Assembly (NCBI GenBank): GCA_016794505.1
Contig: JAEUJZ010000076.1
Location: 192,001-219,181 of the forward strand
Origin: Myxococcales bacterium
GTDB lineage: Bacteria > Myxococcota_A > Polyangia > Palsa-1104 > JAEUJZ01
Reading direction: 5' to 3'
Length of the DNA: 27,181 nt
The notes below the pieces were generated by a model. The model worked only from the letters and a program-made list of their open reading frames with translations. It did not search any database and had not been told where the DNA came from. The translations under genes and the position numbers were made by a program. Shown here one piece after another: positions 1 to 27,181 of this stretch (positions within the stretch are counted from its first letter, which is position 1; each line of letters begins with the position of its first letter).

Positions 1-271
1 TGTGATCGACGTTCTGCTGCACAAGCGCGGCGCGGATGCGACTCTCATGCTCGGCGCGCGGCAGGTTCGCGCTTTCGATCAACACGGCGGGATAGCCGTA
101 CTCGCCGGCTCGCTGCAGAATCGGCGCGCCGGAAACATTGCTGATCACAACGGCGAGCTCGGCCGCCAGCGAGCCATCGCGAAACGCCTGCATCAAGGCC
201 ACGGCATTGCTGCCGCGTCCAGATCCAAGGATCGCAAAGCGCGGCCGCTGGCTGTGTCTAGGACTGGGCAT
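1..271 (-). CDS. purN: Phosphoribosylglycinamide formyltransferase (PurN), N-terminal part; the gene continues past the window start
   Basis: The reverse-complement translation from ATG (269-271) reads MPSPRHSQRPRFAILGSGRGSNAVALMQAF...VVISN, matching the PurN N-terminal GSGxGSN motif. It overlaps the purM stop by ~14 nt. The supplied + ORF 2..397 is the antisense shadow. Confidence 0.75.
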   Translation of the reverse strand, partial: MPSPRHSQRPRFAILGSGRGSNAVALMQAFRDGSLAAELAVVISNVSGAPILQRAGEYGYPAVLIESANLPRAEHESRIRAALVQQNVDH

Positions 272-1319
272 AGCCAAGGTCGGCCCCGTGTCCCGCCGCG
301 ATGTGACCGACGCGTCGCCATGGCGACGCAGCGTCGGCCAAGATGGTCTCGGCGTGCTGTGGCGAAAGCACGACCAAAAAACCCAGGCCCATATTGAACG
401 TGCGGGCCAGCTCGGTTTCTTGCACGTAACCCAAGCGCGCGATCACATCGAAGATCGGCGGTCGCGCATACGAGTGTGGGTCGATAAGGATGCGCTGGTC
501 TTCGCGCACGAGCTTTTCGGCACGCCCCAGCAGACCGCCCCCGGTGATGTGCGCCGCAGCTTTGATGCGCACGCGGCCAAGCAGCGCCAGCACGGGCTCG
601 ACGTATAGCAGCGTGGGTTGCAGAAGCTCTGCCCCCAGCGAGCGATCGAGTCCGGGGAGCGTTTCACGATAGTCCAGTCCAGCCTGGGCAATGACGCGGC
701 GAACCAGCGAAAATCCGTTCGAGTGAACACCGCTCGATGGCAGCCCCAGCACGACATCGCCCACCTCGACATCGCCGCTTGGTACCTGCGCTTGATCGAC
801 CAGGCCTACGGCAAAGCCGGCTAGATCGCAGTCGCCGGGGTCATATAGATCCGGCATCTCTGCGGTCTCTCCGCCCAGCAGCGCGCAGCCGACTGCAGCA
901 CATGCGTCGACGATGCCCTGCGCCAGATCTAGCAGAGGCACCGCGGCTGCATCGGCCTCGCCGCTGGCCGAAAGCGCGATCTTGCCGACGGCCAAGTAAT
1001 CCAGAAAGAACAGCGGGCGGGCTCCGCGCGGCAGCAGATCGTTGACGTTCATCGCCACCAAGTCTTGCCCCAGCCCGCGATACGATCGGCAGGCTCGTGC
1101 GACCAGGATCTTGGTGCCCACCCCGTCGCAGGTTGCCGCCAGAAGCGGCGTGCGCAGCCCGGAAAGTGGTAAGCGGAAGAGACCGGCATAGGCATCTCCG
1201 CTGGGCAAGACGTCTGCGGTCTTGGTGCGCTGGGCCAGCTTGGAAATGGCACGGGCAAAGGCGTCTCCCGCTGCGATGTCGACGCCGGCATCACGATAGG
1301 TCAGAGGCAGCGTGCTCAT
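258..1319 (-). CDS. purM: Phosphoribosylformylglycinamidine cyclo-ligase (AIR synthetase, PurM)
   Basis: 353 aa, N-terminal LTYRDAGVDIAAGD, the typical PurM start, followed by the PurM/AIRS fold. The start overlaps the purF stop (ATGA at 1316-1319). Confidence 0.93.
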   Translation of the reverse strand: MSTLPLTYRDAGVDIAAGDAFARAISKLAQRTKTADVLPSGDAYAGLFRLPLSGLRTPLLAATCDGVGTKILVARACRSYRGLGQDLVAMNVNDLLPRGARPLFFLDYLAVGKIALSASGEADAAAVPLLDLAQGIVDACAAVGCALLGGETAEMPDLYDPGDCDLAGFAVGLVDQAQVPSGDVEVGDVVLGLPSSGVHSNGFSLVRRVIAQAGLDYRETLPGLDRSLGAELLQPTLLYVEPVLALLGRVRIKAAAHITGGGLLGRAEKLVREDQRILIDPHSYARPPIFDVIARLGYVQETELARTFNMGLGFLVVLSPQHAETILADAASPWRRVGHIAAGHGADLGYAQS

Positions 1320-2770
1320 ACGGGATACCTTCCATCCATGCAGCCCATGCAGAACGGGCGATCAAAGGTGGCGCGACGCAGGCCGTCTTGACTGAGATAG
1401 CGCAGGTGGTCGGCCCCGACGAAGCGGCGCACCCACTCGATGGCCTCAGCGCTGCTGGCGCGTTCGGCGGGCAGGGTCTTGGCCAAGCGCTCCCCCGCGA
1501 AGGCGCGGTTTAACAAAAGCTCGGACTGCGTTGGGGTATCGATGCCCAAAAAGCAGGGCATCACGATCGGGGGCGAGGCCAAGCGCAGCCAGATCTCTTT
1601 CGCACCGGCTTCGCGGACCATGGCGACGATCTGCCGCGCCGTGTTGCCACGCACCAGCGAGTCGTCAACCAGAAGCACCCGCTTGCCCGCGACCGCTGCC
1701 GCAATCACCGAGAGCTTCATCCGCAGCATCTGCGTTCGCGCGTCTTGGCTGGGCAAGATGAACGTGCGCCCGACGTAGTGGCTGCGCAGGATCGCCATCT
1801 CGAACGGCACGCCGCTACCGCGAGCATATCCGACGGCAGCGGATACTCCCGAATCGGGTACGGGCACCACGACATCGGGGCGCGGAAGATCGCGATCCTG
1901 CTCAGCAAGCTCCATGCCCATGCGCACGCGGGCTTCGTGTGGGCTCTGGCCAAAGATCTCGGAATCCGGGCGCGCGAAATAAATCAACTCGAACACGCAG
2001 GGCGCCGGTTGCACGCTGGCTGGCAAGAGCTGTGTGCTCGAAAGCCCTGTCGGTCCAAGCTCGACGAGCTCGCCCGGTGCCACCTCGCGCACCAGGCTGG
2101 CCCCAATCGCGCGCAGCGCACAGGTCTCGGATGCCACGACCCAGCCTGACTCAGGCTCGGGCAGGCGACCGATCACCAGCGGGCGAATGCCGTGCGCATC
2201 GCGCAGCGCCAACAGCCGCTGGCCACACAGAAGCGTCAGCGAATACGCACCGATCACTCCATCGCACGCGATGCGCAGCGCAGCATGCAGATCCGTCTTG
2301 CGCGAGCGTGTCAGCAGATGCACGAACAGCTCGGTGTCCATCGTCGTCGACAGCAGCGCGCCGTCTTGGCGTAGATCCGCGCTCAGCGAGTCGGCGTTCT
2401 TGAAGTTGCCGTTGTGCGCGATGGCCAACCGACCCAAGGGCGTGGTGGCCAGAAACGGCTGGATGTTCTCAGCGTGATCCACCGTCACCGTGGAATAGCG
2501 CACATGACCGATGGCCATGCAGCCCGGCAGTGCAGAGACCGCATCAAGCGGTAGCGCAGCCACAAGCCCTGGACTGCGCAGGCTGTGTAGCTCGCCCTGA
2601 TCATCGATCGAGGCCAAGCCAGCGGCTTCTTGCCCGCGGTGCTGCAGCGCAAACAGGCCGCGGTGGGCCAGCGCCGCCGCATTCCCGGACGCGCGATACA
2701 CCGCGATGACACCACACTCTTCATGCAGCTTGTCGGCATGCAGCGTGTCGACGTATTCGCTAGGAAACAT
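1316..2770 (-). CDS. purF: Amidophosphoribosyltransferase (PurF)
   Basis: The HEECGVIAV...ALQHRGQEAAG pattern is the Ntn-glutamine amidotransferase Cys plus PurF signature. The ORF track starts at 2818. I prefer the MFPSEYVD ATG at 2770, which overlaps the purL stop by only 11 nt. Confidence 0.9.
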   Translation of the reverse strand: MFPSEYVDTLHADKLHEECGVIAVYRASGNAAALAHRGLFALQHRGQEAAGLASIDDQGELHSLRSPGLVAALPLDAVSALPGCMAIGHVRYSTVTVDHAENIQPFLATTPLGRLAIAHNGNFKNADSLSADLRQDGALLSTTMDTELFVHLLTRSRKTDLHAALRIACDGVIGAYSLTLLCGQRLLALRDAHGIRPLVIGRLPEPESGWVVASETCALRAIGASLVREVAPGELVELGPTGLSSTQLLPASVQPAPCVFELIYFARPDSEIFGQSPHEARVRMGMELAEQDRDLPRPDVVVPVPDSGVSAAVGYARGSGVPFEMAILRSHYVGRTFILPSQDARTQMLRMKLSVIAAAVAGKRVLLVDDSLVRGNTARQIVAMVREAGAKEIWLRLASPPIVMPCFLGIDTPTQSELLLNRAFAGERLAKTLPAERASSAEAIEWVRRFVGADHLRYLSQDGLRRATFDRPFCMGCMDGRYPV

Positions 2771-5075
2771 GGGTCCCCGCGCTGCGCTGGGTGGACGTGC
2801 GTGCGGCATCTGGCGCATTGCCCCTCCAGGCCGTGCGCAGCTCGCGCATCGTCAGCGCGCCATGGCCGACAAGCTGGAAGTCGCTGCCGCCCACTTCGCC
2901 CAGCACGTGATAAGGCACTGCGTGTACATCGGCAAGCTGGCGCAGCGCTGCAACACGCTGTCGATCGAGCCACGCCAGAACCTGCGCGGGCTGTTCGCCA
3001 AATGCTTGAAAGTGTGGACGCGGACTCGCGGGCAAAGACAGCGCGGCCCCGATGTCGCTGCGCAGGCAGAGCTTGGCGAGCGCGATCACAAGACCTCCCT
3101 GCGTGACCGCGGACAGACCGGCGACGGCATCCGCGGCGATCAGCGCACACAGCAAGCGAGCCACGCGCTGCTCTGCCGAAAGATCACAGCGCGGCGAGCC
3201 CACATCGCTGCCATAGCGCAAGCGGGTGTATTGGGCAGCGCCAGGCTCATCGGACAACTCGCCGAGCACGAGCAGCGTATGGCCTGCCTGCAGCCGCGCC
3301 CGCGGCACCTTGCGAACATCGGGCACCACACCCAGCGCACCGACCATTGGCGTCGGTGGGATGGGGCCGCGCGGCGACTCGTTGTACAGCGAGACATTGC
3401 CCCCCGTGACCGGCACACCAAGCTGGCGCAGGCCATCGCCCAAGCCAGCGATCACCTCGGCGATGCGGCGATGTTCGATGGGATCACGCGGCGATGCGAA
3501 GTTGAGCCCATCGGTGATGGCGAGAAGCTCGGCACCGACGCAGGCCAGGCGGCGTGTGGCTTCAGCCAAAGCCGCCTGCGCACCGCGATATGGATCAACG
3601 GCACACAGATCGCCGCGGCCAGAAAGCGTCAGCGCAACACCGCGCATGCTGTCAGGCAAGCGCAAGACCGCGGCCGAAGCCTGCCCTGGACCGCAGACGG
3701 TGCGGTTGCCAACGGTCTGATCGAACTGCGAATAGATCGGCTCGGCATCCGCGCACTGCGCCAGCAACTTCTGCAGTGTCGTCAGCAGCGGCTCGTGCGG
3801 CGTGTTGTGATCAGCAGGCAGCTCGGGAAGCGGTGGCAGCGCAGCCGCGATGGCAAAGCGACTCGCGGGTGCCCCACCTGCGACCAAGCGCGCCGGCAGA
3901 TCGATGCAGACGCTCTGCTCTTTGCGCACCCGCACGCGCCCGCTGTCCGTCAAGACTGCGATGGCGGCTGCCGTCAGGCCGACGGAGCGAAAGTGCTCAA
4001 GAGCTGCCGGTACGTGCTCGGGCTGCACCACCAGCGCGAAGCGCTCTTGCGATTCAGAAAGGAAGATCTCAAGCGCGGTCATGTCGGCTTCGCGCAGCGG
4101 CACCGACGAAAGATCGACGTCCATTCCCACGCCGCCGAGCGCTGCCATCTCGAACGTCGCGCAGGCAATGCCGCAGGCGCCCAGGTCCTGCACCGCCACC
4201 GGGCCTAGCTCGGCAGGAAACGACAGCACGGCCTCCATCAGCAGCTTGCCGGCGAATGGATCGCCCACCTGGATGTGCGAGCGGCGTGTGCGGTTTTGTT
4301 CCTGCGAGCCCAGCGCCTCGCTGGCAAACGCGGCTCCCAAAATTCCATCGCGTCCGGTGGCCGCCCCGACCAGCAGCACGACGTTGCCGGTTCCGTGCGC
4401 GCGTGCCGTGCGCTGCGCATGCGGGCGGATCAGACCCGCGGCCAGCGCGTTGACGAGCGGGTTGCCTTCATATCCTGGGTGGTGCTGCGTGCGTCCGCCA
4501 ATATTGGGAATGCCGATGGCGTTGCCATACCCCGCGATGCCAGCCACCACCCCGCGCTGGATGCGCGCGGTCTGCGGGCTCTGCGCGTTGCCAAAGCACA
4601 GAAAGTCGAGCAGCGCACACGGTCGCGCGCCCTGGGCGATGACATCGCGCAGGATGCCCCCCACGCCCGTTGCTGCGCCCTGATATGGCTCGACGGCGCT
4701 GGGGTGATTGTGGCTCTCGATCTTAAACGCCACAGCCCAGCCCTCGCCGACATCAACGACCCCCGCGTGACTGCCGGGTCCAGCCAAGACACCGCGGCCT
4801 TCTTTCGGCAGGGTCGCAAGCAAGTGGCGCGTCGACTTGTATGAACAGTGCTCGCTCCACATGCCCGAAAAGACAGCAAGCTCTTCGTGCGTGGGGATGC
4901 GTTCCAGCGCGCTGCGGATCGTCTGATACTCGTGCGGCAACAGCCCCATCGCTTCTGCCAAGCGCGCTGCGGATCCTTCATCGTGCTCGTCGCGGTCAAG
5001 CCGTCGCGCGTCCAGGTCCGCCCCTGCGCTGCTGTGCGCGGGCTGCGCATCGTGTTCTCGTGTGGCGATCGTCAT
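2760..5075 (-). CDS. purL: Phosphoribosylformylglycinamidine synthase subunit II (small-type PurL)
   Basis: 771 aa with FSGMWSEHCSYKSTRHLL and duplicated AIRS-like domains, which is the split-type PurL. The start overlaps the purQ stop (ATGA). Confidence 0.94.
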   Translation of the reverse strand: MTIATREHDAQPAHSSAGADLDARRLDRDEHDEGSAARLAEAMGLLPHEYQTIRSALERIPTHEELAVFSGMWSEHCSYKSTRHLLATLPKEGRGVLAGPGSHAGVVDVGEGWAVAFKIESHNHPSAVEPYQGAATGVGGILRDVIAQGARPCALLDFLCFGNAQSPQTARIQRGVVAGIAGYGNAIGIPNIGGRTQHHPGYEGNPLVNALAAGLIRPHAQRTARAHGTGNVVLLVGAATGRDGILGAAFASEALGSQEQNRTRRSHIQVGDPFAGKLLMEAVLSFPAELGPVAVQDLGACGIACATFEMAALGGVGMDVDLSSVPLREADMTALEIFLSESQERFALVVQPEHVPAALEHFRSVGLTAAAIAVLTDSGRVRVRKEQSVCIDLPARLVAGGAPASRFAIAAALPPLPELPADHNTPHEPLLTTLQKLLAQCADAEPIYSQFDQTVGNRTVCGPGQASAAVLRLPDSMRGVALTLSGRGDLCAVDPYRGAQAALAEATRRLACVGAELLAITDGLNFASPRDPIEHRRIAEVIAGLGDGLRQLGVPVTGGNVSLYNESPRGPIPPTPMVGALGVVPDVRKVPRARLQAGHTLLVLGELSDEPGAAQYTRLRYGSDVGSPRCDLSAEQRVARLLCALIAADAVAGLSAVTQGGLVIALAKLCLRSDIGAALSLPASPRPHFQAFGEQPAQVLAWLDRQRVAALRQLADVHAVPYHVLGEVGGSDFQLVGHGALTMRELRTAWRGNAPDAARTSTQRSAGTHVS

Positions 5076-5800
5076 GCCGACTCCTGGCTCGTCAAGAACT
5101 GCCGAGCCGATTGAAACAGCGCTGCGCCATCGTCCGATCCCAGGACCGCTTCGCAGGCTCGCTCGGGATGCGGCATGATGCCGAGCACGCGACCGCTGTC
5201 ATCGAGCACCGCCGCGGTATCTGCCAGCGAGCCGTTGGGGTTTTCGCAGTAGACCAGTGGCACGCGCGTCGCGATCACGTCGTCCCCTTGCGGATGGACA
5301 TAGCGACCTTCGGCATGCGCGATCGGCATGCGCAGCCGGTCGCCTACGCGAGCCTGCCCAAACCACGGGCTCTGGTTTCGCAGGGCAGCCGGCGTGACCT
5401 CGACTTCGATCCAGCGATGCACGAAGCGCGGTGGCTGATTGTACGAGAGCGCCCCCGGCAAGATCCCCGCTTCAACGAGGATCTGAAAGCCGTTGCACAC
5501 GCCGATCACCAGCCCCCCTGCGGCGAGCCACGCTGGCAGCGACTGCACCGCGCGAGCGCGACTGGCCAACATGCCGGCCCGCCAATAGTCGCCGTATGAA
5601 AAGCCACCCGGTAAGCCGACCAGATCGACATCGGCTGGCAGCGCCATGTGGGCCGGATGAAGGCGCGCTGAAAAGCCCGACAGGTTCAGCGCCTCTAGAA
5701 GATCGCGATCTCCGTTGCTGCCCGGAAAGACCACGACTGCTGCGCGTGGAGTACGACCGCGACCGCGGCCGGAATCATTCACAGCCGCGGCCGGGGTCAT
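5072..5800 (-). CDS. purQ: Phosphoribosylformylglycinamidine synthase subunit I (glutaminase, PurQ)
   Basis: AAVVVFPGSNGDRD...GVCNGFQILVEAGILPG is a class-I glutamine amidotransferase with the catalytic Cys in the GVCNGFQ motif. The true start may be a later codon than the ORF-track M. Confidence 0.9.
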   Translation of the reverse strand: MTPAAAVNDSGRGRGRTPRAAVVVFPGSNGDRDLLEALNLSGFSARLHPAHMALPADVDLVGLPGGFSYGDYWRAGMLASRARAVQSLPAWLAAGGLVIGVCNGFQILVEAGILPGALSYNQPPRFVHRWIEVEVTPAALRNQSPWFGQARVGDRLRMPIAHAEGRYVHPQGDDVIATRVPLVYCENPNGSLADTAAVLDDSGRVLGIMPHPERACEAVLGSDDGAALFQSARQFLTSQESA

Positions 5801-6081
5801 GGCTGACCTTCCCGGTACACGGCAGACGCCGCGGGCTTGGCAGCCGACCGCAGCACATAGGTCTCAAGCAGAGGATTCACCAACATGCCTTCACAGACAG
5901 CACGCGCCTTGGCTGCCGCTTGCTCGCTGTCGGCTTCGTCGACAGACAACAGCAAAAAGCGTCCAACCGACTGCGCGCTGCAGCCGTCATAGCCGCTGTC
6001 ATGCATCGCAGCCGAGATGGCATCCGCCTGTGGATCGCGCACACCCGGCCGTGGCTGCACGATGACTTCAAAGTGCGTCAT
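5797..6081 (-). CDS. purS: PurS subunit of FGAM synthase
   Basis: The ORF track gives a 146-aa ORF. The conserved ~94-aa PurS core begins at the internal Met, MTHFEVIVQPRPGVRDPQADAI...VNPLLETYVL. The ATG at 6079-6081 overlaps the purC TGA (ATGA coupling). Confidence 0.85.
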   Translation of the reverse strand: MTHFEVIVQPRPGVRDPQADAISAAMHDSGYDGCSAQSVGRFLLLSVDEADSEQAAAKARAVCEGMLVNPLLETYVLRSAAKPAASAVYREGQP

Positions 6082-6818
6082 GCGACCTCTTGATGCGAAA
6101 AGGCGGGCACTTGCAGAGCTGGTATTTTTTCCAGTCGCGCAAGCAGCGCCGCGTAGGTTGGCACTAGCTCGGCAAGGTCTTGGCGAAAGACGTCTTTGTC
6201 GAGCACTTGACCGCTGTGAACATCCCGAAAGCGGCACGTGTCCGGCGAGATCTCATCGGCCAGCCACACCCTGCCATCGGCACGCCCGAACTCGAACTTC
6301 AGATCAAACAGCGCCACATCGGCTTGCAGAAACAGCGTGCGCAGCGCCTGTGCTGCGGTCAAAGCCAAGCTGCGCAGCGTCGCAAGCTCAGCCGGCGACG
6401 CGATGCCAAGCAGCCGCACATGATCGTCGTTGATCAGCGGATCGCTGAGATCATCGCGCTTGTAATAAAGCTCGCAAACCGGCGGCGTGCAGGGATGCCC
6501 GTACGGCAGTCCGGTTCGCGTACAAAGCGAGCCCGCCACTGCGAAGCGCACGACCACTTCCAGCGGAATGATCTCGACCGCGCGGCAGATCAGCGTGCGC
6601 TCATCTTTGCGCTGCACAAGATGCGTAGGAATCTGCTCGCGCGCTAGATACGCCAGCAATCGCTCGCTGATGCGACAGCACAGCTCTCCTTTGCCGGGAA
6701 ATGTCGCGCGCTTCTTGCCATTCCCCGCTGTCGCGTCGTCCTTGAAATAGATCTCGGCCAGTCCATTGGGCAGCAGTCGGACCTGCTTGGCTTTGCCCTC
6801 GTACAGATCATCTCGCAT
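6078..6818 (-). CDS. purC: SAICAR synthetase (PurC)
   Basis: MRDDLYEGKAKQVRLLPNGLAEIYFKDDATA is the typical PurC N-terminus, 246 aa. An AAGGAAG Shine-Dalgarno lies 9 nt upstream of the ATG. Confidence 0.93.
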   Translation of the reverse strand: MRDDLYEGKAKQVRLLPNGLAEIYFKDDATAGNGKKRATFPGKGELCCRISERLLAYLAREQIPTHLVQRKDERTLICRAVEIIPLEVVVRFAVAGSLCTRTGLPYGHPCTPPVCELYYKRDDLSDPLINDDHVRLLGIASPAELATLRSLALTAAQALRTLFLQADVALFDLKFEFGRADGRVWLADEISPDTCRFRDVHSGQVLDKDVFRQDLAELVPTYAALLARLEKIPALQVPAFSHQEVA

Positions 6819-7028
6819 GCACGCTGTCTTCCTTGCGAAGCGCTGCGTTGTTTGCCGTGAGATCGCGCAACCTTTGCACGCCGCGGTGAGTGCATCCCGC
6901 GCTGTGTTTTGTTGCGCGCAATGGGTGCTTCATCGGCCTTTCAAAGTCAAGTGACGTTTTTGTTTCTGAAGGAAAAAAAACGGAACGCGCTTGACGCAAG
7001 CCACCGGAACTCGCTAGAAGCACGCCCC
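6819..7028. promoter_or_regulatory. Divergent intergenic control region between purC (minus) and pyrD (plus); candidate sigma70-like promoter for pyrD and candidate purC promoter
   Basis: The region has an A8 run at 6973-6980. On the plus strand TTGACG (6991-6996) is followed by an 18-nt spacer and TAGAAG (7015-7020). On the minus strand TTGACT is followed by ~17 nt, upstream of purC. Hexamer assignments are weak. Confidence 0.3.
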
Positions 7029-8087
7029 GTGAGCGAACCAACTGCACGTGTGCTGAGTTCCTCGCTGCCCGCTTTCGATCGCGCCGATCATCGCGAGATC
7101 ACGGAAGCGTCAGCGGATCCTGGTTTGCCGCTGCGCTCTGCGCCGCGCGACCGTTCTTTAAGTGAACGCGATCCGTTCTTTGCACTGTCGGCACGCAGTC
7201 CGCTGTGGGCGGCCGCGGGTCCATGGTCAAGCGGCGAACAGAGCGCGGATGCGCTGTCGACAGCCGGTGCGGTGGTCGCCAAGACCGTCACGGCAGAGCC
7301 ACGAGCCGGCAATCCTCCGCCCGTCTTACACAAGTATGCGGGTGGAAGTGGCGGCTATCTGAATCGCATTGGCCTGCGCAATGTCGGTGCCGCCGAGTTC
7401 GCGCGAGCGCGCTTGCCGATTGTGCGCGCCTGCAACGCGCCAACGATTCAGAGCTTCACCGCACAGACCGAAGCTGAAGTCGAAGCGATTCTGCAGGTGT
7501 TCACACCCGAAGCCATCGTGGGATATGAGCTCAATGCCTCGTGTCCCAATGCTCCCTCGGGTCAGCTCGATGATGCGGTCTTGCGAGCGGTGCTGCGCTG
7601 CGCCCGTCGGCTTTCGCCGCGGCCGATCTGGGTCAAGCTTGCCTATGCACCGGCCGAGCTGTTGCGGTCCCGAGCTCGCATCTGCGCCGACGAAGGTGCC
7701 GATGGCATCACCGCCATCAACACCCTGCCTGCGCTGGCCGTGACGCTGCCAAGCATCGACTCTGCGCAGCGCAAACCCGATGATCCCTTTTTGTTTCGCG
7801 GGGGCGTGTCAGGTCCTACGCTGACGCCGCTTGCGCAGTGGGCCGTCGACTTCCTGGTGCGCGAGCAGCCGCTGCCTGTGATCGCCTGTGGCGGCGTCGG
7901 ATCGCTGCACGAGGTCTTGGCCTTTGCCGCGCTGGGAGCGAGCGCCGTCCAAGTGGGCTCGGCCCTGCTCGATGACGCGACCGTGCTGCGCCGCTTGCAG
8001 CGCGAGCTAGCGCACGCCGCGCAGCGCGCCCAGATCACATCGTGGAATGAGCTCGTCGAGGTCCTATGTCCGCACAAGCGAAGCTAG
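7029..8087 (+). CDS. pyrD: Dihydroorotate dehydrogenase, class 1 (Cys active-site base), catalytic subunit
   Basis: GNPPPV...GGYLNRIGLRNVG...ELNASCPNAP...PIWVKLAY...ITAINTLP...GGVSGP...IACGGVGS match the class-1 DHODH motifs. The ORF-track start at 6909 is TTG. The core begins near DPFFALSARSPLWAAAG. I chose the in-frame GTG at 7029, with GTG 7050 as an alternative, so the start is uncertain. Confidence 0.85.
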   Translation: MSEPTARVLSSSLPAFDRADHREITEASADPGLPLRSAPRDRSLSERDPFFALSARSPLWAAAGPWSSGEQSADALSTAGAVVAKTVTAEPRAGNPPPVLHKYAGGSGGYLNRIGLRNVGAAEFARARLPIVRACNAPTIQSFTAQTEAEVEAILQVFTPEAIVGYELNASCPNAPSGQLDDAVLRAVLRCARRLSPRPIWVKLAYAPAELLRSRARICADEGADGITAINTLPALAVTLPSIDSAQRKPDDPFLFRGGVSGPTLTPLAQWAVDFLVREQPLPVIACGGVGSLHEVLAFAALGASAVQVGSALLDDATVLRRLQRELAHAAQRAQITSWNELVEVLCPHKRS

Positions 8088-8899
8088 CCATCGGCATGTC
8101 GCAGCGCGGACCGCTGTGCATTGGCCTAGATCCCGATCGCGATCGCCTGCCCGCCTGCGTGCGCGGTGATGTTGCCGTCTTCTTGCGCGAGATCATCGCC
8201 ACCACAGCCGATATCGCATGCGGCTTCAAGATCAACAGCGCGTTTTTCGAATCGATGGGTCTTGATGCGAGCGGTGAAGGCCACGTGCTTGCGAGCACGC
8301 GCGCGGCCCTGCCTTCTTCTGCTCTCTTCATCTGGGACGGCAAGCGCGGCGACATCGGCAACACCAATCGCCACTATGCCCACGCCGCGTTTGAAGTGCT
8401 GGGGGCCGATGCGGTGACAGTGCATCCGTATCTTGGCCTTGAGCCACTTGAGCCCTTCCTGCGCTACCGCGAGCGCTTGACCTTTGTCTTGTGCGCCACC
8501 AGCGAAGGATCACAGATGCAAGACCTTTGCATTTCTGATCGCGAAGGCGAAGCGATGGCGCAGCCGCTGTGGCAGTGGGTCGCGCGCAAGGTCGCGCAGC
8601 AAAGTGACGGTCAGTGCGGCCTGGTCGTCGGGGCAACGCAGCCCGAGCGCTTGGCCTGGGTGCGCAAGGTCGCTCCGCAGCTGCCGCTTTTGGTGCCGGG
8701 CGTCGGCGCGCAGGGCGGACAGATCCCGGCACAAGGAAGTGGAGCCCCCCTCTTGATCAACGCCTCGCGCTCGATCTTGTACGCGAGTGCGGGCCCTGAC
8801 TTTGCTGCGGCGGCACGCGCCGCTGCCCTGTCCCTGCGCACGGCGTGTGTCAACGCATCCGTCGCATCCGCGATCGCGCCGAACCCTGTCTCTCACTAA
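8066..8899 (+). CDS. pyrF: Orotidine-5'-phosphate decarboxylase (long/type-2 form)
   Basis: 277 aa with LCIGLDPD...KINSAFFE...WDGKRGDIGNT, giving the PyrF Asp-x-Lys-x-x-Asp and K..DIGNT motifs. It overlaps the pyrD 3' end by 22 nt. Confidence 0.88.
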   Translation: MSAQAKLAIGMSQRGPLCIGLDPDRDRLPACVRGDVAVFLREIIATTADIACGFKINSAFFESMGLDASGEGHVLASTRAALPSSALFIWDGKRGDIGNTNRHYAHAAFEVLGADAVTVHPYLGLEPLEPFLRYRERLTFVLCATSEGSQMQDLCISDREGEAMAQPLWQWVARKVAQQSDGQCGLVVGATQPERLAWVRKVAPQLPLLVPGVGAQGGQIPAQGSGAPLLINASRSILYASAGPDFAAAARAAALSLRTACVNASVASAIAPNPVSH

Positions 8900-8913
8900 C
8901 GAGGTCTTCGCCC

Positions 8914-9513
8914 ATGTCGCTGTCCGCTGTTTCGTCCGCTCAAGAAGTCGAGGCGCGCTTGCACGAAACCGGAGCCTTGCTGCACGGTCACTTTCTTTTG
9001 AGCTCGGGCCTGCACTCCGATCAATACATTCAGTGCGCACGCTTGCTGTCGTATCCACAGCACGCCGAGTTCGCCGGCAAGGCCCTGGCCGCAGCCTGTC
9101 GCGAGCGTGGACTCCAGCCGATCGACGTCGTGTTGGGACCGGCACTCGGCGGCATCGTGATCGCGCATGAGGTTGCTCGCGCACTGGGGGTACGGGCGCT
9201 GTTTGCCGAACGGGAAGCCGGCGCGCTGACCCTGCGCCGCGGCTTTGCGATGTCGCCTGGTGAACGCGTGCTGATTGTCGAAGACGTCATCACCACAGGG
9301 GGCTCTGCCGTCGAGACCGCCACCCTGGCGCAAGCGCACGGCGCGCGGATCGCAGGCTACGCCGCAATCGTAGAGCGCGGCAGCGACCATGGCTTGCAGC
9401 CGCTGTGCGCACTGTGGCGTGTGCGACCGCAGGTCTTCGCAGCCGAAGCCTGCCCCCTGTGCCAAGCCGGCAGCCCGGCCATCAAGCCCGGCTCGCGCGG
9501 ACCCAAGCCGTAG
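8914..9513 (+). CDS. pyrE: Orotate phosphoribosyltransferase
   Basis: LIVEDVITTGGS is the PRPP-binding motif of type-I PRTases, with OPRT-like length and context. I chose the ATG at 8914 (MSLSAVSS...), which follows GAGG 9 nt upstream. The ORF-track start at 8845 lacks an RBS. Confidence 0.88.
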   Translation: MSLSAVSSAQEVEARLHETGALLHGHFLLSSGLHSDQYIQCARLLSYPQHAEFAGKALAAACRERGLQPIDVVLGPALGGIVIAHEVARALGVRALFAEREAGALTLRRGFAMSPGERVLIVEDVITTGGSAVETATLAQAHGARIAGYAAIVERGSDHGLQPLCALWRVRPQVFAAEACPLCQAGSPAIKPGSRGPKP

Positions 9514-13386: not shown

Positions 13387-15166
13387 TCAGCGCGAGGATG
13401 CATGGGCTACGCAGTCCTCGGCCGTGGGCACGCGGGGGATGACGATGTTCGTGTTGTTGGGATCGAACTGCGCCGGCAAATGGCAGCGAAGGAACGCCGC
13501 AAGCTGCTCGGGCCCGCGCGCTTCGGGCGAGACGTCCCATATGCGCGCCGTCTTGTCCCAGCTCGCGGTGACGATGCGCCGACCATCCGGGCTATACATC
13601 GCGCCCACCACGCTGCCCCCGTGGCCCATGAGAACGGCCTTGGGAGCGCCTGCGGCGTGGACTGTACTCGCGAGCAAGTCAGGCAGTGCCGCATCCTTGC
13701 TGCCTTCCGCCTGGGCTCGATGCAGCCAGAGCAGTCCTTCACTGGGGTTGCCGCGCTCAAAGACCAGCTGCCTGCCGCGCTCCACATACTCCAGGTGCGC
13801 AGCGCCGCCCAGTGATCGAACAGCGCCTCGTGCGTGACCTCGGCCAGAGGCTCAGCCCCGTCGCCGCTCAGCGTCACCAGGCGCGCCTGTTCGGTGGCAA
13901 ATTTTCGCAGCACCCCGAGCACACGCGCTTCCGTCTCGCCCCGCCCGCACAGCTCAGAAATCGGAGCCCGACGCCGCGTGTCGCGCGTGCCTTCGCCGAG
14001 CCGCACCAAGCGCACCAGCGCCCGCTGCGCCGTCGCTTGCTTGCTCGGATCGAGCTGGTTGCAGATCGCCTGCGCCTTGCCGGCCAGCGCACCGCCGACG
14101 CCGCCCATTTTTCGCAGCGTCTCGCCGGGCTCTTGGCCTGCGTGCATGCCCTCCCAAATGTTCGTCAGCGCAAACTCAAGCAGCGGCAGCGTGCCTTCGT
14201 TGCCCCAAGCCTGATCGAGCAGCAGCTCGACCGTCGCATCGTCGATCGGCTGGCCGGCTTGTGCGGCGGGCTCTGTGATGGCCTGGCGCAGCTCGTCGCG
14301 GTTCATCGCCGTCACGATGACTTCCTGCGCGCCAATCAAGCGATGGAGCTCGACGTGATGGCGGTGCGTCTCACCCAGGAAGTCGCTGCGCAGCGTCAGC
14401 ACGATCGACACATGACGGCTGCGCGCGGCGGCGGCGTGAAGCAGGACACCGATGAAGGCCTCGCGCTCGTCCTTGTGGCTGCACAGCGTGTAGACCTCTT
14501 CAAGCTGATCGACCAACACGACAAACGGCGACCGCTCGACGCCGGGCCGACTCGCCGCCCACTGGCTGAGCCCATCGAATTCGCCGCGCCCATTGGGCTT
14601 GCGCAGAAAGTCGGCCAGGTCCCGCTGCGCCGATAGCTCGGCTGCCGTCGCCGGATTGTGGCCCGGTGGCAAGAGCGCCATCGCCAGCACGCCGACCGGA
14701 TGTTCCCCGGCTTGAACGCGATGGACTGCAGCGGATCCGGCCCCGGAATCGGCGCGGTCTGAAGCTCGGCCAAAAGCCCCGCTCGCGCCACCGACGACTT
14801 GCCCGAGCCCGACGGCCCCAGCACCGCCAAAAGCCGCGTCGATCCCGCCTGCTCGTACAGCGCCTTGAAGCGCTGCCAAAGTCGCTCGGTCAGCTCGTCG
14901 CGGCCAAAGAACAGGTCGGTCTCGTCGACTTGGAACGCCGACAGCCCACGATACGGATTCTTCGCGGCCTGGCCCGCTGCCGACCGAGGCGACAAGAGCA
15001 GCCGCTTGTGCCGCGCAGCGCGTCGCGGATTCCTTTTCGAAAGGGCCGCGACCAGCTCTTCGCCGTCGACGATCTGCCGTTTATGGGCTCGGCTGCGTCC
15101 CGTGGCTTCGCAGCGTTCACCTCGTCCGCCCCATCGGCCTGACTGCTGTGTCCGCTCTCTGGTCAT
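13387..15166 (-). pseudogene. Degraded STAND (NACHT-like) NTPase with a single C-terminal WD40 repeat, disrupted by two frameshifts and truncated
   Basis: Three consecutive reading frames carry successive parts of one protein. Frame 1 (ORF 14396..15232) has NPYRGLSAFQVDETDLFFGRDELTERL...LAVLGPSGSGKSSVARAGLLAEL, i.e. Walker A. Frame 2 (ORF 13407..14879) has HRVQAGEHPVGVLAMALLPPGHNP...VVLVDQLEE (Walker B-like)...LPLLEFALTNIWE...EALFDHWAALRTW. Frame 3 (ORF 13387..13785) has ERGRQLVFERGN...LMGHGGSVVGAMYSPDGRRIVTASWDKTARIWDV, one WD40 repeat, then a stop. The frame switches fall near 14725-14740 and near 13790. Confidence 0.6.
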
Positions 15167-24488: not shown

Positions 24489-25235
24489 ATGGCCTCGAAA
24501 CAAGTCCTCGATCGACAGAAACTGACGAGCCTCGTCGTCGCCGCCGGGCAGAGCCATGGCGCCCTGATCGCGCAGCGCCTGGGCGACACGCTCTTGCCCT
24601 ACGTCAAGCGCGGCGAGACGCTGCCTGACCTCAAGCTCGTGTCCGATCTCTGTCTGCGCTGGCTGTCCGACGCCGAGTCCACGCTCGTCGCAGCCGATCT
24701 CGCCCACGAGCGCGAGCTGGCCGATGACTCGGAACCGCGCCGCCGCCGCGATGAGCACGCCGCCGCCCTGCGCGAGCAGCTCATCGACCTGCGCGATCTC
24801 GTCAGCGCGCTGTATGGAACCGATGCCACCCTCGCCCTGGGCATGTCCGGCGAGACCCCCACCGACGCCGTGGCCCTGTCGCGTCAGGGTAAGAACGTCC
24901 TTTTGGCCCTCGCTAGCGTGCGCCTGCCCAAGCCGCGCCGTCGCGGTGCCGAGCTTTCCCCCAAAGAGATCGAGGCCGAGCTAAAGCCCGCCGTAGCCGC
25001 CCTCGATCAGGCGCTCGCCGACGTCGCCCGCGAGTCCCGCGAGGCCCAAGCGACCCTGGCCGCCCGCGACACCGCCTGGGCTGAATTCGAGCGCCGCTAC
25101 AGCGCCACCACCGCCGTCCTCGCCGCCCTCCTCGCTGCAGCCGGCGAGACCGCCCTCTCTGAAAAGCTGCGCCCCAGCGCCGGCCGCAAGCCGCAACCCC
25201 AGCCCGAACCCGAGCCCGCCCCCGCCCCCACCTAA
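24489..25235 (+). CDS. Hypothetical acidic, predominantly helical protein with a C-terminal PQPEPEPAPAP low-complexity tail
   Basis: AAGGAGGG lies 5 nt upstream of the ATG. The product is 248 aa with no TM segment and no recognisable motif. It is divergent from the sigma-54 EBP gene. Confidence 0.55.
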   Translation: MASKQVLDRQKLTSLVVAAGQSHGALIAQRLGDTLLPYVKRGETLPDLKLVSDLCLRWLSDAESTLVAADLAHERELADDSEPRRRRDEHAAALREQLIDLRDLVSALYGTDATLALGMSGETPTDAVALSRQGKNVLLALASVRLPKPRRRGAELSPKEIEAELKPAVAALDQALADVARESREAQATLAARDTAWAEFERRYSATTAVLAALLAAAGETALSEKLRPSAGRKPQPQPEPEPAPAPT

Positions 25236-25296: not shown

Positions 25297-25492
25297 TAAA
25301 ACGCGCGCTCCAAGCCCTCCCAAACGCCTCCCAAAATTTACGACGCCCCCGAAAAGCCCTGCCAAACGCCCCCAAAAACTCAGAACACCCGCTCCAACCC
25401 CTCCCGAGCGCCTCCCAAAATTTCCGACCCCCCCAAAAAACCCTTCCGACCCCCCCAAGACATACGACGCCCCCAAAAACCCCTTCCGATCC
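25297..25492. repeat. Duplicated ~90-100-bp C/A-rich element (the plus strand is C-rich and G-poor; the minus strand carries G4-G7 tracts) in a convergent intergenic gap
   Basis: The two copies share cgctccaa[g/c]ccctccc[aaac/gagc]gcctcccaaaattt[a/c]cgac... and acgacgccccc[g]aaaa[g]ccc. On the minus strand the runs GGGGGG, GGGG, GGGGG, GGGGGGG, GGG and GGGGGGG are closely spaced. Confidence 0.8.
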
Positions 25493-25521
25493 CCCCGCTT
25501 TAGAGCATGTTCAAGCTCCGG

Positions 25522-25866
25522 CTAGATGTGCTTCACATTCGCGCCCGCCTCGCGCGCATCCAGCTCTGTCTGCACGCGATCCAGCAAGGTCTGCAGCCAC
25601 TGCCGCTGCTCCGCTTCGGTGACGAGGTAGCGGTTGGCGTTGGTCGCGATCAGTCGCAGCGGCAATTCATGTTGGCCCAGAAAACGCTGAGCATCTGCTA
25701 GCACCTTCACTATCCAGCTTGGATCGTATTCCAGAACCGCTTGTTGCGTAATCTCCGCGTCCGTCTGGCCATCGTCGGGATCAGCGAACAACGCCAACAG
25801 GGTGGACAAACTTCGGTACTCCTCAAAGAATCGCTTTTCCTCATTTGAGGTAGGCCGTGAGGACAT
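25522..25866 (-). CDS. Small hypothetical protein (114 aa), third gene of the putative toxin/immunity module
   Basis: A strong RBS (AAGGAGG) lies 6 nt upstream of the ATG at 25866. The product is acidic and helical (…LADAQRFLGQHELPLRLIATNANRYLVTEAEQRQWLQTLLDRV). No family was recognised. Confidence 0.55.
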   Translation of the reverse strand: MSSRPTSNEEKRFFEEYRSLSTLLALFADPDDGQTDAEITQQAVLEYDPSWIVKVLADAQRFLGQHELPLRLIATNANRYLVTEAEQRQWLQTLLDRVQTELDAREAGANVKHI

Positions 25867-25948
25867 AGAAGCCTCCTTGCAAGTCTCGCTCTAGAACCAC
25901 CTTCGCCACAGTGTGCGGCGTTGCCCGCAGCGACCCGTTGCCGAGCCC

Positions 25949-26575
25949 TCAAAACCAGTGCGCCGCTTCCTCCGCCGGCACGAGCGGGCAATTCAACAGC
26001 CCATTCTCCTCGACGAACCGCTTGAAGTGCTCGTCGACCAGCACCTCGCCAAAGCCGCGCACCGTGCAGATGTTTTCGCGTGGTTCTTCTTCCAGCACGA
26101 TCCGCTCCCAGCCTTTCTTGATTCCGCCCTCGCGGCACACGTCACATGGCGGCGATGGTGGCTCCACCCACTGCATGCCTGAGGCCACAAAATCGAGCGC
26201 CGCCTGCGAGCGCTGCGCCACGACGCGGAAGTACGCGGGCGGTGCGTCCTTGAAGCGCTTGCCACGCCGCACCACCTTCACGATCTCCACCGGCTCAAAT
26301 CCTTCCAAACCAATCAATCCCGACTTCAGCCACAGATCTTTGAAGCGCTCGCTGATCAGGATGCTCTCGCCAGGACCAAAGGCCATGTCGCCGAAGCGCT
26401 TGCCCCAGGTTTCTAGCTCGGCGCGCAGAGGGGGTGCCCAACGAAACATTCCGATCGGCCCGCCACAGGCCAGGCAGTTTGGCCCATCACTCACGTTATG
26501 CGGGTCTGCCTGGATAAAATCCGTCGTCGCCGCATAGCTGGGGTCGGTATGCTTCAGCAGATAGATCTTCTTCAT
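25949..26575 (-). CDS. Double-CxxC-motif protein (208 aa) resembling the myxobacterial 'double-CXXCG' paralogous family; candidate immunity or Zn-ribbon protein
   Basis: Two Cys pairs are present, NCLACGGP (CxxCG) and CDVCREGG (CxxC). The ATG overlaps the upstream gene's TGA (ATGA at 26572-26575). The family assignment is from memory of the TIGRFAM description, not from a search. Confidence 0.6.
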   Translation of the reverse strand: MKKIYLLKHTDPSYAATTDFIQADPHNVSDGPNCLACGGPIGMFRWAPPLRAELETWGKRFGDMAFGPGESILISERFKDLWLKSGLIGLEGFEPVEIVKVVRRGKRFKDAPPAYFRVVAQRSQAALDFVASGMQWVEPPSPPCDVCREGGIKKGWERIVLEEEPRENICTVRGFGEVLVDEHFKRFVEENGLLNCPLVPAEEAAHWF

Positions 26576-27181
26576 TTCGACTGCTCTCTCTGGATGGCTT
26601 CAAACCCGTTGGGGAAGCGCTGCTTCAGCTCGGGACGCTCATATAGCGAGCGTAGATACGCCTCGAAGTTCTCCGGTGTCGCTTTCCTGTTGTCATAGAT
26701 CCACTTCGAAATCTCCTCATCGAGTTCGCGGTGCCAGCTTTGGTACCCGCGGTGTGCGTCGTCATCTCCTGCGCGCAGCACAAAACGCGGATCCCGCGGT
26801 TGATATCGGCCGCGCAAGATGCGGTGCTCTTCTAGTGCGCGATGCACCCGCCGCGAGATCGCGTGATGCATCTGCCCTGGTTTTAACGGCGCATCGATGT
26901 GCTCTGCGATACTCGGCTTGGTGCGCAGCGGTCCGCGGCCGCCGAGCTTGCCCAAGAACGGCAACAACAACTGCGCGCCCTGCGCCTCGGGATTGCACGT
27001 GATCTCGCGATAGATCTGCATCCCGAGCACGGCGGCACGACCGCCGAAGTCGTCATTCGCAACGACGGCAGCCCAGCCTGCATCAATGCCCTGCGGAATC
27101 GGATCGAGCTTCCCTTCGCACAGCTTCGGATCCGGCTCATGGCGCATCAAGCCGTCGACGTAGTCGAGGACGGCTTTGTGC
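26572..27181 (-). CDS. C-terminal ~200 aa of a larger protein (the gene continues past the window end); His-rich motifs suggest an HNH/EndoVII-fold (AHH-like) nuclease toxin domain
   Basis: The frame stays open to the window edge (...HKAVLDYVDGLMRHEPDPK...). Motifs are GQMHHAISRRVHRALEEH (xHHxI...H...H), DDAHRGYQSWHRELDEEISKW and the tail ATPENFEAYLRSLYERPELKQ. No signal peptide is visible in this part. Confidence 0.45.
   Translation of the reverse strand, partial: HKAVLDYVDGLMRHEPDPKLCEGKLDPIPQGIDAGWAAVVANDDFGGRAAVLGMQIYREITCNPEAQGAQLLLPFLGKLGGRGPLRTKPSIAEHIDAPLKPGQMHHAISRRVHRALEEHRILRGRYQPRDPRFVLRAGDDDAHRGYQSWHRELDEEISKWIYDNRKATPENFEAYLRSLYERPELKQRFPNGFEAIQREQSK

Follow-up and report, generated by a model that had tools for sequence, protein, structure and literature searches.

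A swapped toxin tip at the 3′ end of a probable polymorphic toxin–immunity locus of Myxococcota

Analysis of the right end of a 27,181-nucleotide (nt) stretch of DNA from a Myxococcales bacterium (contig JAEUJZ010000076.1; this whole stretch is called the window below) indicates that the three minus-strand genes present there very probably constitute the 3′ end of a polymorphic toxin–immunity locus of Polyangia type, belonging to the Myxococcota, in which the C-terminal tip of the toxin has been swapped. A first reading made from the letters without database searches (the sequence-only reading) had placed three genes at 25522-27181, with an ATGA overlap, His motifs and Cys pairs. Reading the sequence directly, we found all of these: three open reading frames (ORFs) on the minus strand (Table 1), GQMHHAISRRVHRALEEH and AHRGYQSWHRELDEE in the visible product of the toxin gene, and CLACGG and CDVCREGG in the 208-amino-acid (aa) product of the gene that follows it. 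The three ORFs are real genes and not chance occurrences because they have strong homologues, with E values from 1e-30 to 1e-122. The 4-nt overlap between the first two is shared with locus L001 and with the EndoU-tipped relative present in L006/L007; L003 has a 4-nt overlap too, but the immunity start called there is GTG. The third gene, coding for a 114-aa protein, lies 82 nt beyond the second. The G+C content of the module is 55-64%, as compared to 68-72% in the neighbouring chromosomal genes, and this fits mobility.

Table 1. Coordinates of the features of the three-gene module in the window (pI, isoelectric point)
Feature	Position	Strand	Remarks
Toxin gene (ORF at the window edge)	27180 to stop TGA 26572-26574	-	Still open at the window edge; 202 residues visible
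Pre-toxin (trafficking) region, 3′ part	26929..27181	-	Visible residues 1-84
Junction motif GGRGPLRTKP	26914..26943	-	End of the conserved region, start of the exchangeable tip
C-terminal toxin tip	26575..26877	-	About 101 aa; pI 9.4; GQMHH...RDPRF...AHRGYQSWH...RFPNGF
ATGA overlap of toxin stop and immunity start	26572..26575	-	Seen in the sequence itself
Cognate immunity gene	25949..26575	-	208 aa; Imm11 fold; conserved C34, C37, C144 and C147
Relic of the displaced RNase-A-like tip	25841..25948	-	Last 35 codons and stop; GLGNGSLRATPHTVAKVVLERDLQGGFYVLTAYLK followed by the stop
Orphan immunity gene	25522..25866	-	114 aa; pI 4.7; homologues paired with RNAse_A_bac tips

In the scheme that we propose, the toxin is composed of a trafficking region, located mostly past the window edge, of a junction (GRGPLR.KP) and of an exchangeable basic tip with five conserved His residues. 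The tip would be delivered into a neighbouring cell, where it would most likely act as a metal-dependent xHH nuclease, and the 208-aa protein, translated from the ATG that overlaps the toxin stop codon, would shield the producer by binding the tip. The present tip and its Imm11-like partner recombined in as a cassette, from the GRGP junction to about 35 codons before the end of the old tip. An RNase-A-like tip was displaced by this event, leaving behind its last 35 codons and the intact 114-aa immunity gene, which may still guard the cell against kin carrying the RNase allele.

The tip and its linkage to the immunity gene

The sequence-only reading had proposed that the ORF at the window edge ends in a polymorphic-toxin C-terminal domain, and the distribution of this domain bears the proposal out. 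When 1.84 billion cluster representatives (clusters at 50% identity) were searched with a profile made from the final ~120 residues, 587 of them scored E<=0.001, and 155 reached E<=1e-30. The domain is C-terminal in 147 of the 148 proteins that were retrieved, and in 143 of these 148 the match ends at most 5 residues from the C-terminus. The proteins that carry it span 99 to 2753 aa. Among them are five RHS-repeat proteins, one of which has an Rhs-associated core just before the tip; other carriers have RCC1 repeats or a Pre-toxin-TG domain, and one, of 696 aa, has two outer-membrane protein (OMP) beta-barrel domains. Such placement at the extreme C-terminus of many different carriers is a classic mark of a polymorphic-toxin domain. 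The consensus of the family reads tGQ.HH.IS..al..Hp.L.G.y..RDpRfvt.A.d..aH.GYq.WHR.lD.Ev..W...Fe..Lr..Y..pdl..RFPnG, and its conserved His residues occupy positions 105, 106, 119, 143 and 150 of the visible window product. There was no match of the window tip in Pfam (E<=10) or in NCBIfam, neither of which has a family that covers it. This represents an annotation gap, with a tip found in at least 587 clusters, including on RHS proteins, that is left unnamed in both collections.

A first metagenome scan, seeded with the toxin, returned no matches. A scan seeded with the immunity family alone brought 11 loci, 9 of which include upstream DNA. The tip is encoded 3-20 nt upstream of the immunity gene in seven of these nine loci; in another, only a relic of the tip's end is left (YSRPELLARFPNGF, followed by the stop), and in the last one insertion sequence (IS) elements interrupt. 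The same pairing of the tip with an Imm11-like gene is found in the window, in L001, in L003 and in L017-L020. Among the loci examined, the gene next to the tip always follows the type of tip: an Imm11-like gene after the HH tip (the window's type) and a homologue of the 114-aa gene after the RNase tip; the EndoU tip of L006/L007 is followed by a different, 134-aa gene. The linkage seen in loci collected through the immunity family alone thus agrees with the earlier proposal that the coupled 208-aa protein is the immunity partner, and the tip is now firmly linked to immunity proteins of the Imm11 clan that form a Cys-rich branch of it.

More complex arrangements exist in L017-L020. The array there (e.g. 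L018 2990-7250) contains an HH tip with its Imm11-like gene, then another gene of this type, then half a tip (55 aa) that is paired with a third one, and lastly an Imm6 gene. The first tip of the array looks frameshifted at its GQNHH motif. In L018 a large ORF (22-1746) lies upstream of the array.

The 208-aa immunity protein

Judged from its homologues and from gene linkage, the 208-aa protein is the cognate immunity partner of the tip, and it is a Cys-rich relative within the Imm11 clan. Its fold matches that of the Imm11 prototype, MXAN_0049 (PDB 6a4c). MXAN_0049 is experimentally proven to confer immunity to the AHH nuclease MXAN_0050 (PMC12077181, PMC12077131). Detection by sequence profiles is less direct. 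The window protein itself matched nothing in Pfam at E<=10, PF07791 and PF09535 included, or in NCBIfam at E<=1, TIGR02264 included. Imm11 (PF07791; clan CL0767) was matched at E<=10 by 8 of 26 homologues, with two of them, P0023 (27.0 bits) and P0026 (27.8 bits), passing the gathering score of 22.1 bits.

The sequence-only reading had linked the protein to the double-CxxCG family. This was not upheld by the profiles, as neither PF09535 nor TIGR02264 was reached: Gmx_para_CXXCG (PF09535) appeared below threshold in only two homologues, the best being P0023 with 20.7 bits against a cut-off of 25. Imm11 and the double-CXXCG proteins belong to one and the same clan. As for the Cys pairs, CLACGG fits the CxxCG pattern while CDVCREGG is CxxCR, and both pairs are conserved in the family. 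In a set of 27 homologues, the four residues (C34, C37, C144 and C147) vary little or not at all, which suggests a structural metal site; this site would probably stabilize the protein. A weak SH3-like match of the immunity profile in the PDB (E 6e-4) was taken as a resemblance at the level of a sub-domain and rejected as an identification. Look-ups of the exact sequences of the window 208-aa protein, P0002 and P0027 found none of them on record. Searching plasmids by tblastn with the tip and the immunity protein as queries yielded no match.

By analogy with the experiments carried out on MXAN_0049/MXAN_0050 and on pMF1.19/pMF1.20, we infer that the 208-aa protein binds and neutralizes the tip. 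In the second of these pairs, pMF1.20, a DUF2380 toxin, is a DNase that is inhibited in vitro by its partner (PMC6091211).

Probable activity of the tip

What the tip does once delivered is a more delicate question. It is likely, on the basis of a structural model and of analogy, that it is a metal-dependent nuclease of the xHH type (HNH/EndoVII-like). Three considerations favour this assignment. The first is the AlphaFold2 model of the tip (pLDDT 82), in which the xHH motif lies on a short strand and precedes another strand and a His-bearing helix; these elements come in the order that one would expect of a beta-beta-alpha-metal finger containing an insert. The second is that the set formed by the HH pair, Asp, His, Tyr and His resembles the motifs of HNH/EndoVII toxin clades (PMC3482391). 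The third lies in the partner, because its immunity clan has been described only with nucleases of this kind: Tox-AHH, Tox-HNH, Tox-SHH and the DUF2380/SitA6 DNase (PMC3482391, PMC12077181, PMC6091211).

Several points weigh against it. The sequence-only reading had seen in the tip a resemblance to AHH/HNH-superfamily nucleases, and formal membership of these families could not be upheld. Of the Pfam toxin families, AHH (PF14412) alone turns up repeatedly in relatives of the tip, but it does so faintly, in 3 out of 40 (best E 0.078), and the window tip does not match it at E<=10. Alignment with hhalign of the tip profile to the DNase domains of colicin E9, colicin E2, pyocin-type and klebicin toxins, taken from plasmid records, gave a probability of 0.7%. 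No structural match to solved HNH nucleases was obtained, and a PDB sequence search with the tip profile brought only a chance match to Hsc70. The tip family and its immunity subfamily are both known from sequence alone, and the nuclease assignment is one that we infer. The conserved pattern of AHH toxins is [AG]HH, N, H, H, Y (PMC3482391); in our family the HH pair is conserved at ~90% or more but the preceding residue is variable (M/V/L/I/Q/E), RDPRF stands in place of the Asn, and the remaining His, Tyr and His are conserved in a different order, H-x-G-Y-x-x-W-H.

This departure in residue order, together with the lack of a significant link in sequence or structure between the tip and any HNH/EndoVII family or solved structure, leaves some room for another interpretation: the pair would still be a toxin and its immunity protein, but the tip would work as a His-dependent enzyme of a different sort, for example a metallopeptidase, an RNA-specific enzyme or a phosphoesterase whose substrate is not a nucleic acid, and its xHH likeness would be superficial. 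We view this as a minority possibility, to be set against the company kept by the Imm11 clan, the order of elements in the model and the recurrence, albeit faint, of AHH among the relatives.

The orphan immunity gene and the relic of the displaced tip

The 114-aa product of the third gene is 55-77% identical to the products of genes located directly after RNAse_A_bac (PF18431) tips of the same toxin family. Such homologues directly follow RNase tips in L002, L005 and L011, and those of L009 and L010 share 26 nt with the 3′ end of the toxin gene. On these grounds of homology and position, the 114-aa protein is an orphan immunity protein for an RNase-A-like tip no longer present, i.e. the second of the two options (second immunity protein or orphan) left by the sequence-only reading. 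Matches in Pfam are faint and concern CdiI_2 and Barstar; the gathering score of CdiI_2 (PF18593), 26.7 bits, is not reached by the window protein (13.8 bits, E 0.1), and its L002 homologue scores 14.6 bits.

The displaced tip itself has left a trace. The 105 nt that run from the stop codon of the 208-aa gene to a little beyond the start codon of the 114-aa gene encode, in the third frame, the last 35 residues of an RNase-A-like tip, without the catalytic part. Ungapped alignment of this relic to the C-termini of the PF18431 tips of L002, L005, L009 and L010 gave scores of 76-98, while shuffled sequences scored 18.5 +/- 3.7, with a maximum of 42. The relic is also supported by DNA alignment and by tblastn. 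Displacement of one tip by another is thus seen here in a clean case, where the breakpoint is readable to within a few codons owing to the 35 surviving codons and the immunity gene.

The relic also alters the view of the start of the 114-aa gene, described previously as an acidic protein with a strong ribosome-binding site. The protein is indeed acidic and AGGAGG is indeed present ahead of the ORF, but this hexamer encodes the Gly-Gly of QGGFYVLTAYLK, the end of which precedes the stop and which is part of the tip relic. We therefore rejected it as a dedicated strong ribosome-binding site; it is conserved coding sequence of the relic instead.

A comparable accumulation of remains was noticed downstream of the toxin gene in L004 (2580-3752). 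A small CxxC ORF, presumably the immunity gene of the L004 tip, is read through into a homologue of the 114-aa gene; next comes an orphan RNAse_A_bac tip fragment that starts exactly at GGRGP, the whole forming an orphan array.

The carrier and its possible export route

By comparison with its relatives, the toxin gene of the window is a member of a Myxococcota/Polyangia family of polymorphic toxins with exchangeable C-terminal tips. The visible pre-toxin residues are 78-81% identical to the same region of L004, L005 and L002, which are toxins ending in other tips (an RNase tip in L005 and L002, a tip without Pfam match in L004). The relatives sharing these residues come from Polyangia and Myxococcales metagenome-assembled genomes. 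The conserved region ends with the motif G[RK]GP.RAKP, kept in all family members, and right behind it conservation drops from ~0.65 to ~0.4; the junction motif is also where the orphan RNase tip fragment of L004 begins.

L004 encodes a full-length example of 603 aa, the N-terminal 475 aa of which were used as a query and collected 30 homologues. The tips of the latter are RNAse_A_bac (PF18431), EndoU_bacteria (PF14436) or CdiA_C tRNase (PF18451), or have no Pfam family; a weak ParB-like match was obtained at the tip of P0198 (E 0.047). The group without Pfam family includes P0028 and the frameshifted P0035, both of which came from the search with the window toxin and carry the window's tip. 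Complete homologues measure ~570-665 aa, with a conserved N-terminal region of ~480 aa. It was suggested in the sequence-only reading that secretion or delivery domains, for instance of RHS or filamentous-haemagglutinin type, could lie upstream. The general part of this suggestion holds for the homologues, which have a signal peptide and a trafficking region; the window gene is not a very long protein of RHS or filamentous type, because its full-length relatives reach ~570-665 aa only.

The N-terminus of the carrier comprises, in order, a signal peptide, a CGF.APC motif, ~230 residues free of Cys and a segment of ~190 aa with four conserved Cys. A signal peptide opens every family member that has a complete N-terminus, and in full-length relatives it is of the signal-peptidase-I type, without lipobox. 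The Cys-free stretch displays seven strongly alternating segments, or about twelve strands when judged by eye, the last of which ends with GGLQFSW. In an alignment of 18 family members, most of them full length, the visible pre-toxin stretch of the window corresponds to the Cys-rich segment. The conserved N-terminal region is not covered by any family of Pfam or NCBIfam, including IAT_beta or any OMP model. Next to the full-length relatives, neither type VI secretion system (T6SS), CdiB/TpsB nor other secretion genes were found; the toxin gene stands alone with its immunity gene.

Taken together, these features could mean that the ~480-aa region is a self-contained module for export and anchoring in the outer membrane, resembling inverse autotransporters, in which a signal peptide and a 12-strand barrel would be followed by a disulfide-bonded surface domain and by the tip. 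In addition, the HH tip may be a new clade or fold of interbacterial nuclease. We put forward this combined proposal, which for the carrier is derived from sequence patterns, as a tentative one that may well prove wrong. Were the part on the carrier true, toxins would be delivered by a route which dispenses with type Vb, type VI or type VII machinery and has not been described before. Toxin delivery in Myxococcota has so far been characterized for T6SS and outer-membrane exchange only (PMC12077181), and a toxin-displaying outer-membrane barrel would add to these a new and simple contact-dependent route. The 696-aa carrier of the same tip, P0037, suggests that the design arose more than once. 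Its N-terminus resembles a signal peptide, Pfam places OMP_b-brl at 42-206 and OMP_b-brl_2 at 262-393, and the tip occupies residues 597-695. BLASTP revealed no homology between the L004 N-terminal region and P0037, so this carrier and the putative barrel-type carrier of L004 are independent, and fusion of the HH tip to an outer-membrane barrel may have arisen twice.

For the window copy itself, another situation is conceivable, namely that it is a silent orphan module, consisting of an N-terminally truncated toxin and of immunity genes, and serving as a recombination reservoir and immunity island. The window ends inside the gene, before its upstream part, and both a full-length toxin with signal peptide and a truncated orphan fit what is visible. 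In the NCBI annotation, the close relatives P0027 and P0029 are 242-aa proteins starting at an internal Met. Orphan arrays of tips and immunity genes do occur, in L004 and in L017-L020. In addition, L002 has a degenerate look (4402-5929): an ORF with a signal peptide (4463-4732) lies almost directly before the post-barrel segment, without the predicted barrel region in between, and the carrier is split from its RNase tip by a frameshift at the LLGK/VGGKGP junction. However, the reading frame of the window toxin is open and well conserved across its 202 visible codons, with no stop or frameshift in sight, and in L003 and P0028, which have the same tip, the ORF reaches, on its upstream side, at least the segment that comes behind the predicted barrel. 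We thus regard a silent module as rather improbable. If the window copy is full length, ~380 further codons are expected upstream, holding GGLQFSWGPHVRNPWAE, the predicted strands and a signal peptide.

The small size and tight coupling of the genes, with overlapping codons, could also evoke an addiction module, i.e. a toxin–antitoxin pair acting inside the cell, in place of a competition toxin that is exported. The related DUF2380/double-CXXCG pair of plasmid pMF1 was, moreover, initially taken for a post-segregational killing system (PMC6091211). Such a reading is hardly tenable here: the toxin gene runs upstream into a region which, in full-length relatives, has a signal peptide and conserved paired Cys, RHS proteins end in the same tip, and both the toxin-then-immunity gene order and tip exchange are hallmarks of polymorphic toxins.

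A further observation on the carrier loci concerns L006 and L007. In the part compared (positions 1-9400), these two long contigs have an identical EndoU-tipped toxin gene, immunity gene and the same downstream genes, but beyond ~600 nt upstream of the toxin the genes are wholly different; this may mark a rearrangement or insertion boundary, or else an assembly chimera.

Comparison with known systems

In the definition of Zhang et al. 2012 (PMC3482391), polymorphic toxins share an N-terminal region linked to unrelated tips, are followed immediately by a tip-specific immunity gene, and have displaced tip fragments and orphan immunity genes downstream. The first two traits are found in the present family and the third in the window and in the arrays of L004 and L017-L020. 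In layout and probable function, the locus is a standard polymorphic toxin locus with tip exchange of the type known from contact-dependent inhibition (CDI) and Rhs systems; what appears to be undescribed is the tip family and the N-terminal region of the carrier.

The closest relatives of the tip–immunity pair are the AHH/Imm11 and DUF2380/double-CXXCG pairs of myxobacteria. When compared to the AHH/Imm11 pairs of Myxococcus xanthus (MXAN_0050/MXAN_0049; SitA5-SitI5), the window tip falls below the AHH model PF14412, and the immunity protein falls below PF07791 itself and has two CxxC pairs. The carrier differs too, as it has neither the PAAR of the T6SS nor the lipoprotein escort of SitA but a different, uncurated N-terminal region. 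With SitA6 (DUF2380, PF09533) and its double-CXXCG partner (PF09535, TIGR02264), the window pair has in common a myxobacterial origin, an Imm11-clan immunity protein with two CxxC and a His-rich toxin (PMC6091211, PMC12077181). It departs from them in that its immunity protein has no reportable PF09535 or TIGR02264 score and in that the full-length relatives of its toxin have a signal-peptidase-I-type signal peptide instead of a lipobox. PF09533 was not detected at E<=1 in the window toxin or in the L004 and L003 relatives sharing its pre-toxin region, and it is not among the best 25 of the 31 families matched by 40 members of the tip family at E<=10. Given these closest relatives, and since SitA6/DUF2380 toxins are known to have double-CXXCG proteins as their immunity partners (PMC12077181), a Cys-rich partner of the Imm11 clan is not unusual in myxobacteria, contrary to what had been supposed in the sequence-only reading.

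Organization of the family recalls CdiA-CT and Rhs-CT toxins: a delivery region, a short junction motif, a variable cassette of tip and immunity gene, and displaced tips and orphan immunity genes downstream. Two of the alternative tips, RNAse_A_bac (PF18431) and CdiA_C (PF18451), are even CdiA-CT families. In contrast to CDI and Rhs proteins, the conserved carrier region is only ~480 aa long and has no filamentous haemagglutinin repeats, VENN or PxxxxDPxGL motif, and CdiB/TpsB and T6SS genes are missing beside the full-length relatives, as noted above. The signal peptide, the strand-patterned stretch, the C-terminal position of the exported part and the lack of a dedicated partner nearby are reminiscent of inverse autotransporters (type Ve; intimin/invasin). 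However, this likeness is one of sequence pattern, in a region lying outside the window, and it comes with no IAT_beta or OMP match. A full-text literature search retrieved no description of such a barrel-type carrier.

Surroundings of the module

No secretion system is present within the window. The rest of it encodes a sigma-54 activator with an FHA domain, a seven-transmembrane Ser/Thr kinase, PEGA and FG-GAP proteins, an nSTAND1 NTPase and a LysR regulator, together with pyrD-like and purine-biosynthesis genes. Genes for nSTAND1 NTPases lie near toxin loci of this kind in several places: at 13407-14879 in the window (~11 kb away), at 213-4814 in L009 and at 6819-8720 in L017. This proximity, within a few kb on three unrelated contigs, may be a coincidence in Myxococcota genomes, which are rich in STAND proteins.

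Convergent with the toxin module is a plus-strand ORF of 248 aa (24489-25235), whose product has a Pro/Glu-rich tail and a weak match to the NCBIfam 'PQLLE family' (E 3e-4; 20.5 bits, the cut-off being 80). Between this ORF and the 114-aa gene, at 25315-25496, lies a degenerate G-rich tandem array with a period of ~21 or 42 nt, made of about 4 copies (68% match) of units resembling, on the minus strand, GGGGGGTCGGAAGGGGTTTTTTGGGGG, and with a strongly negative GC skew (-0.5).

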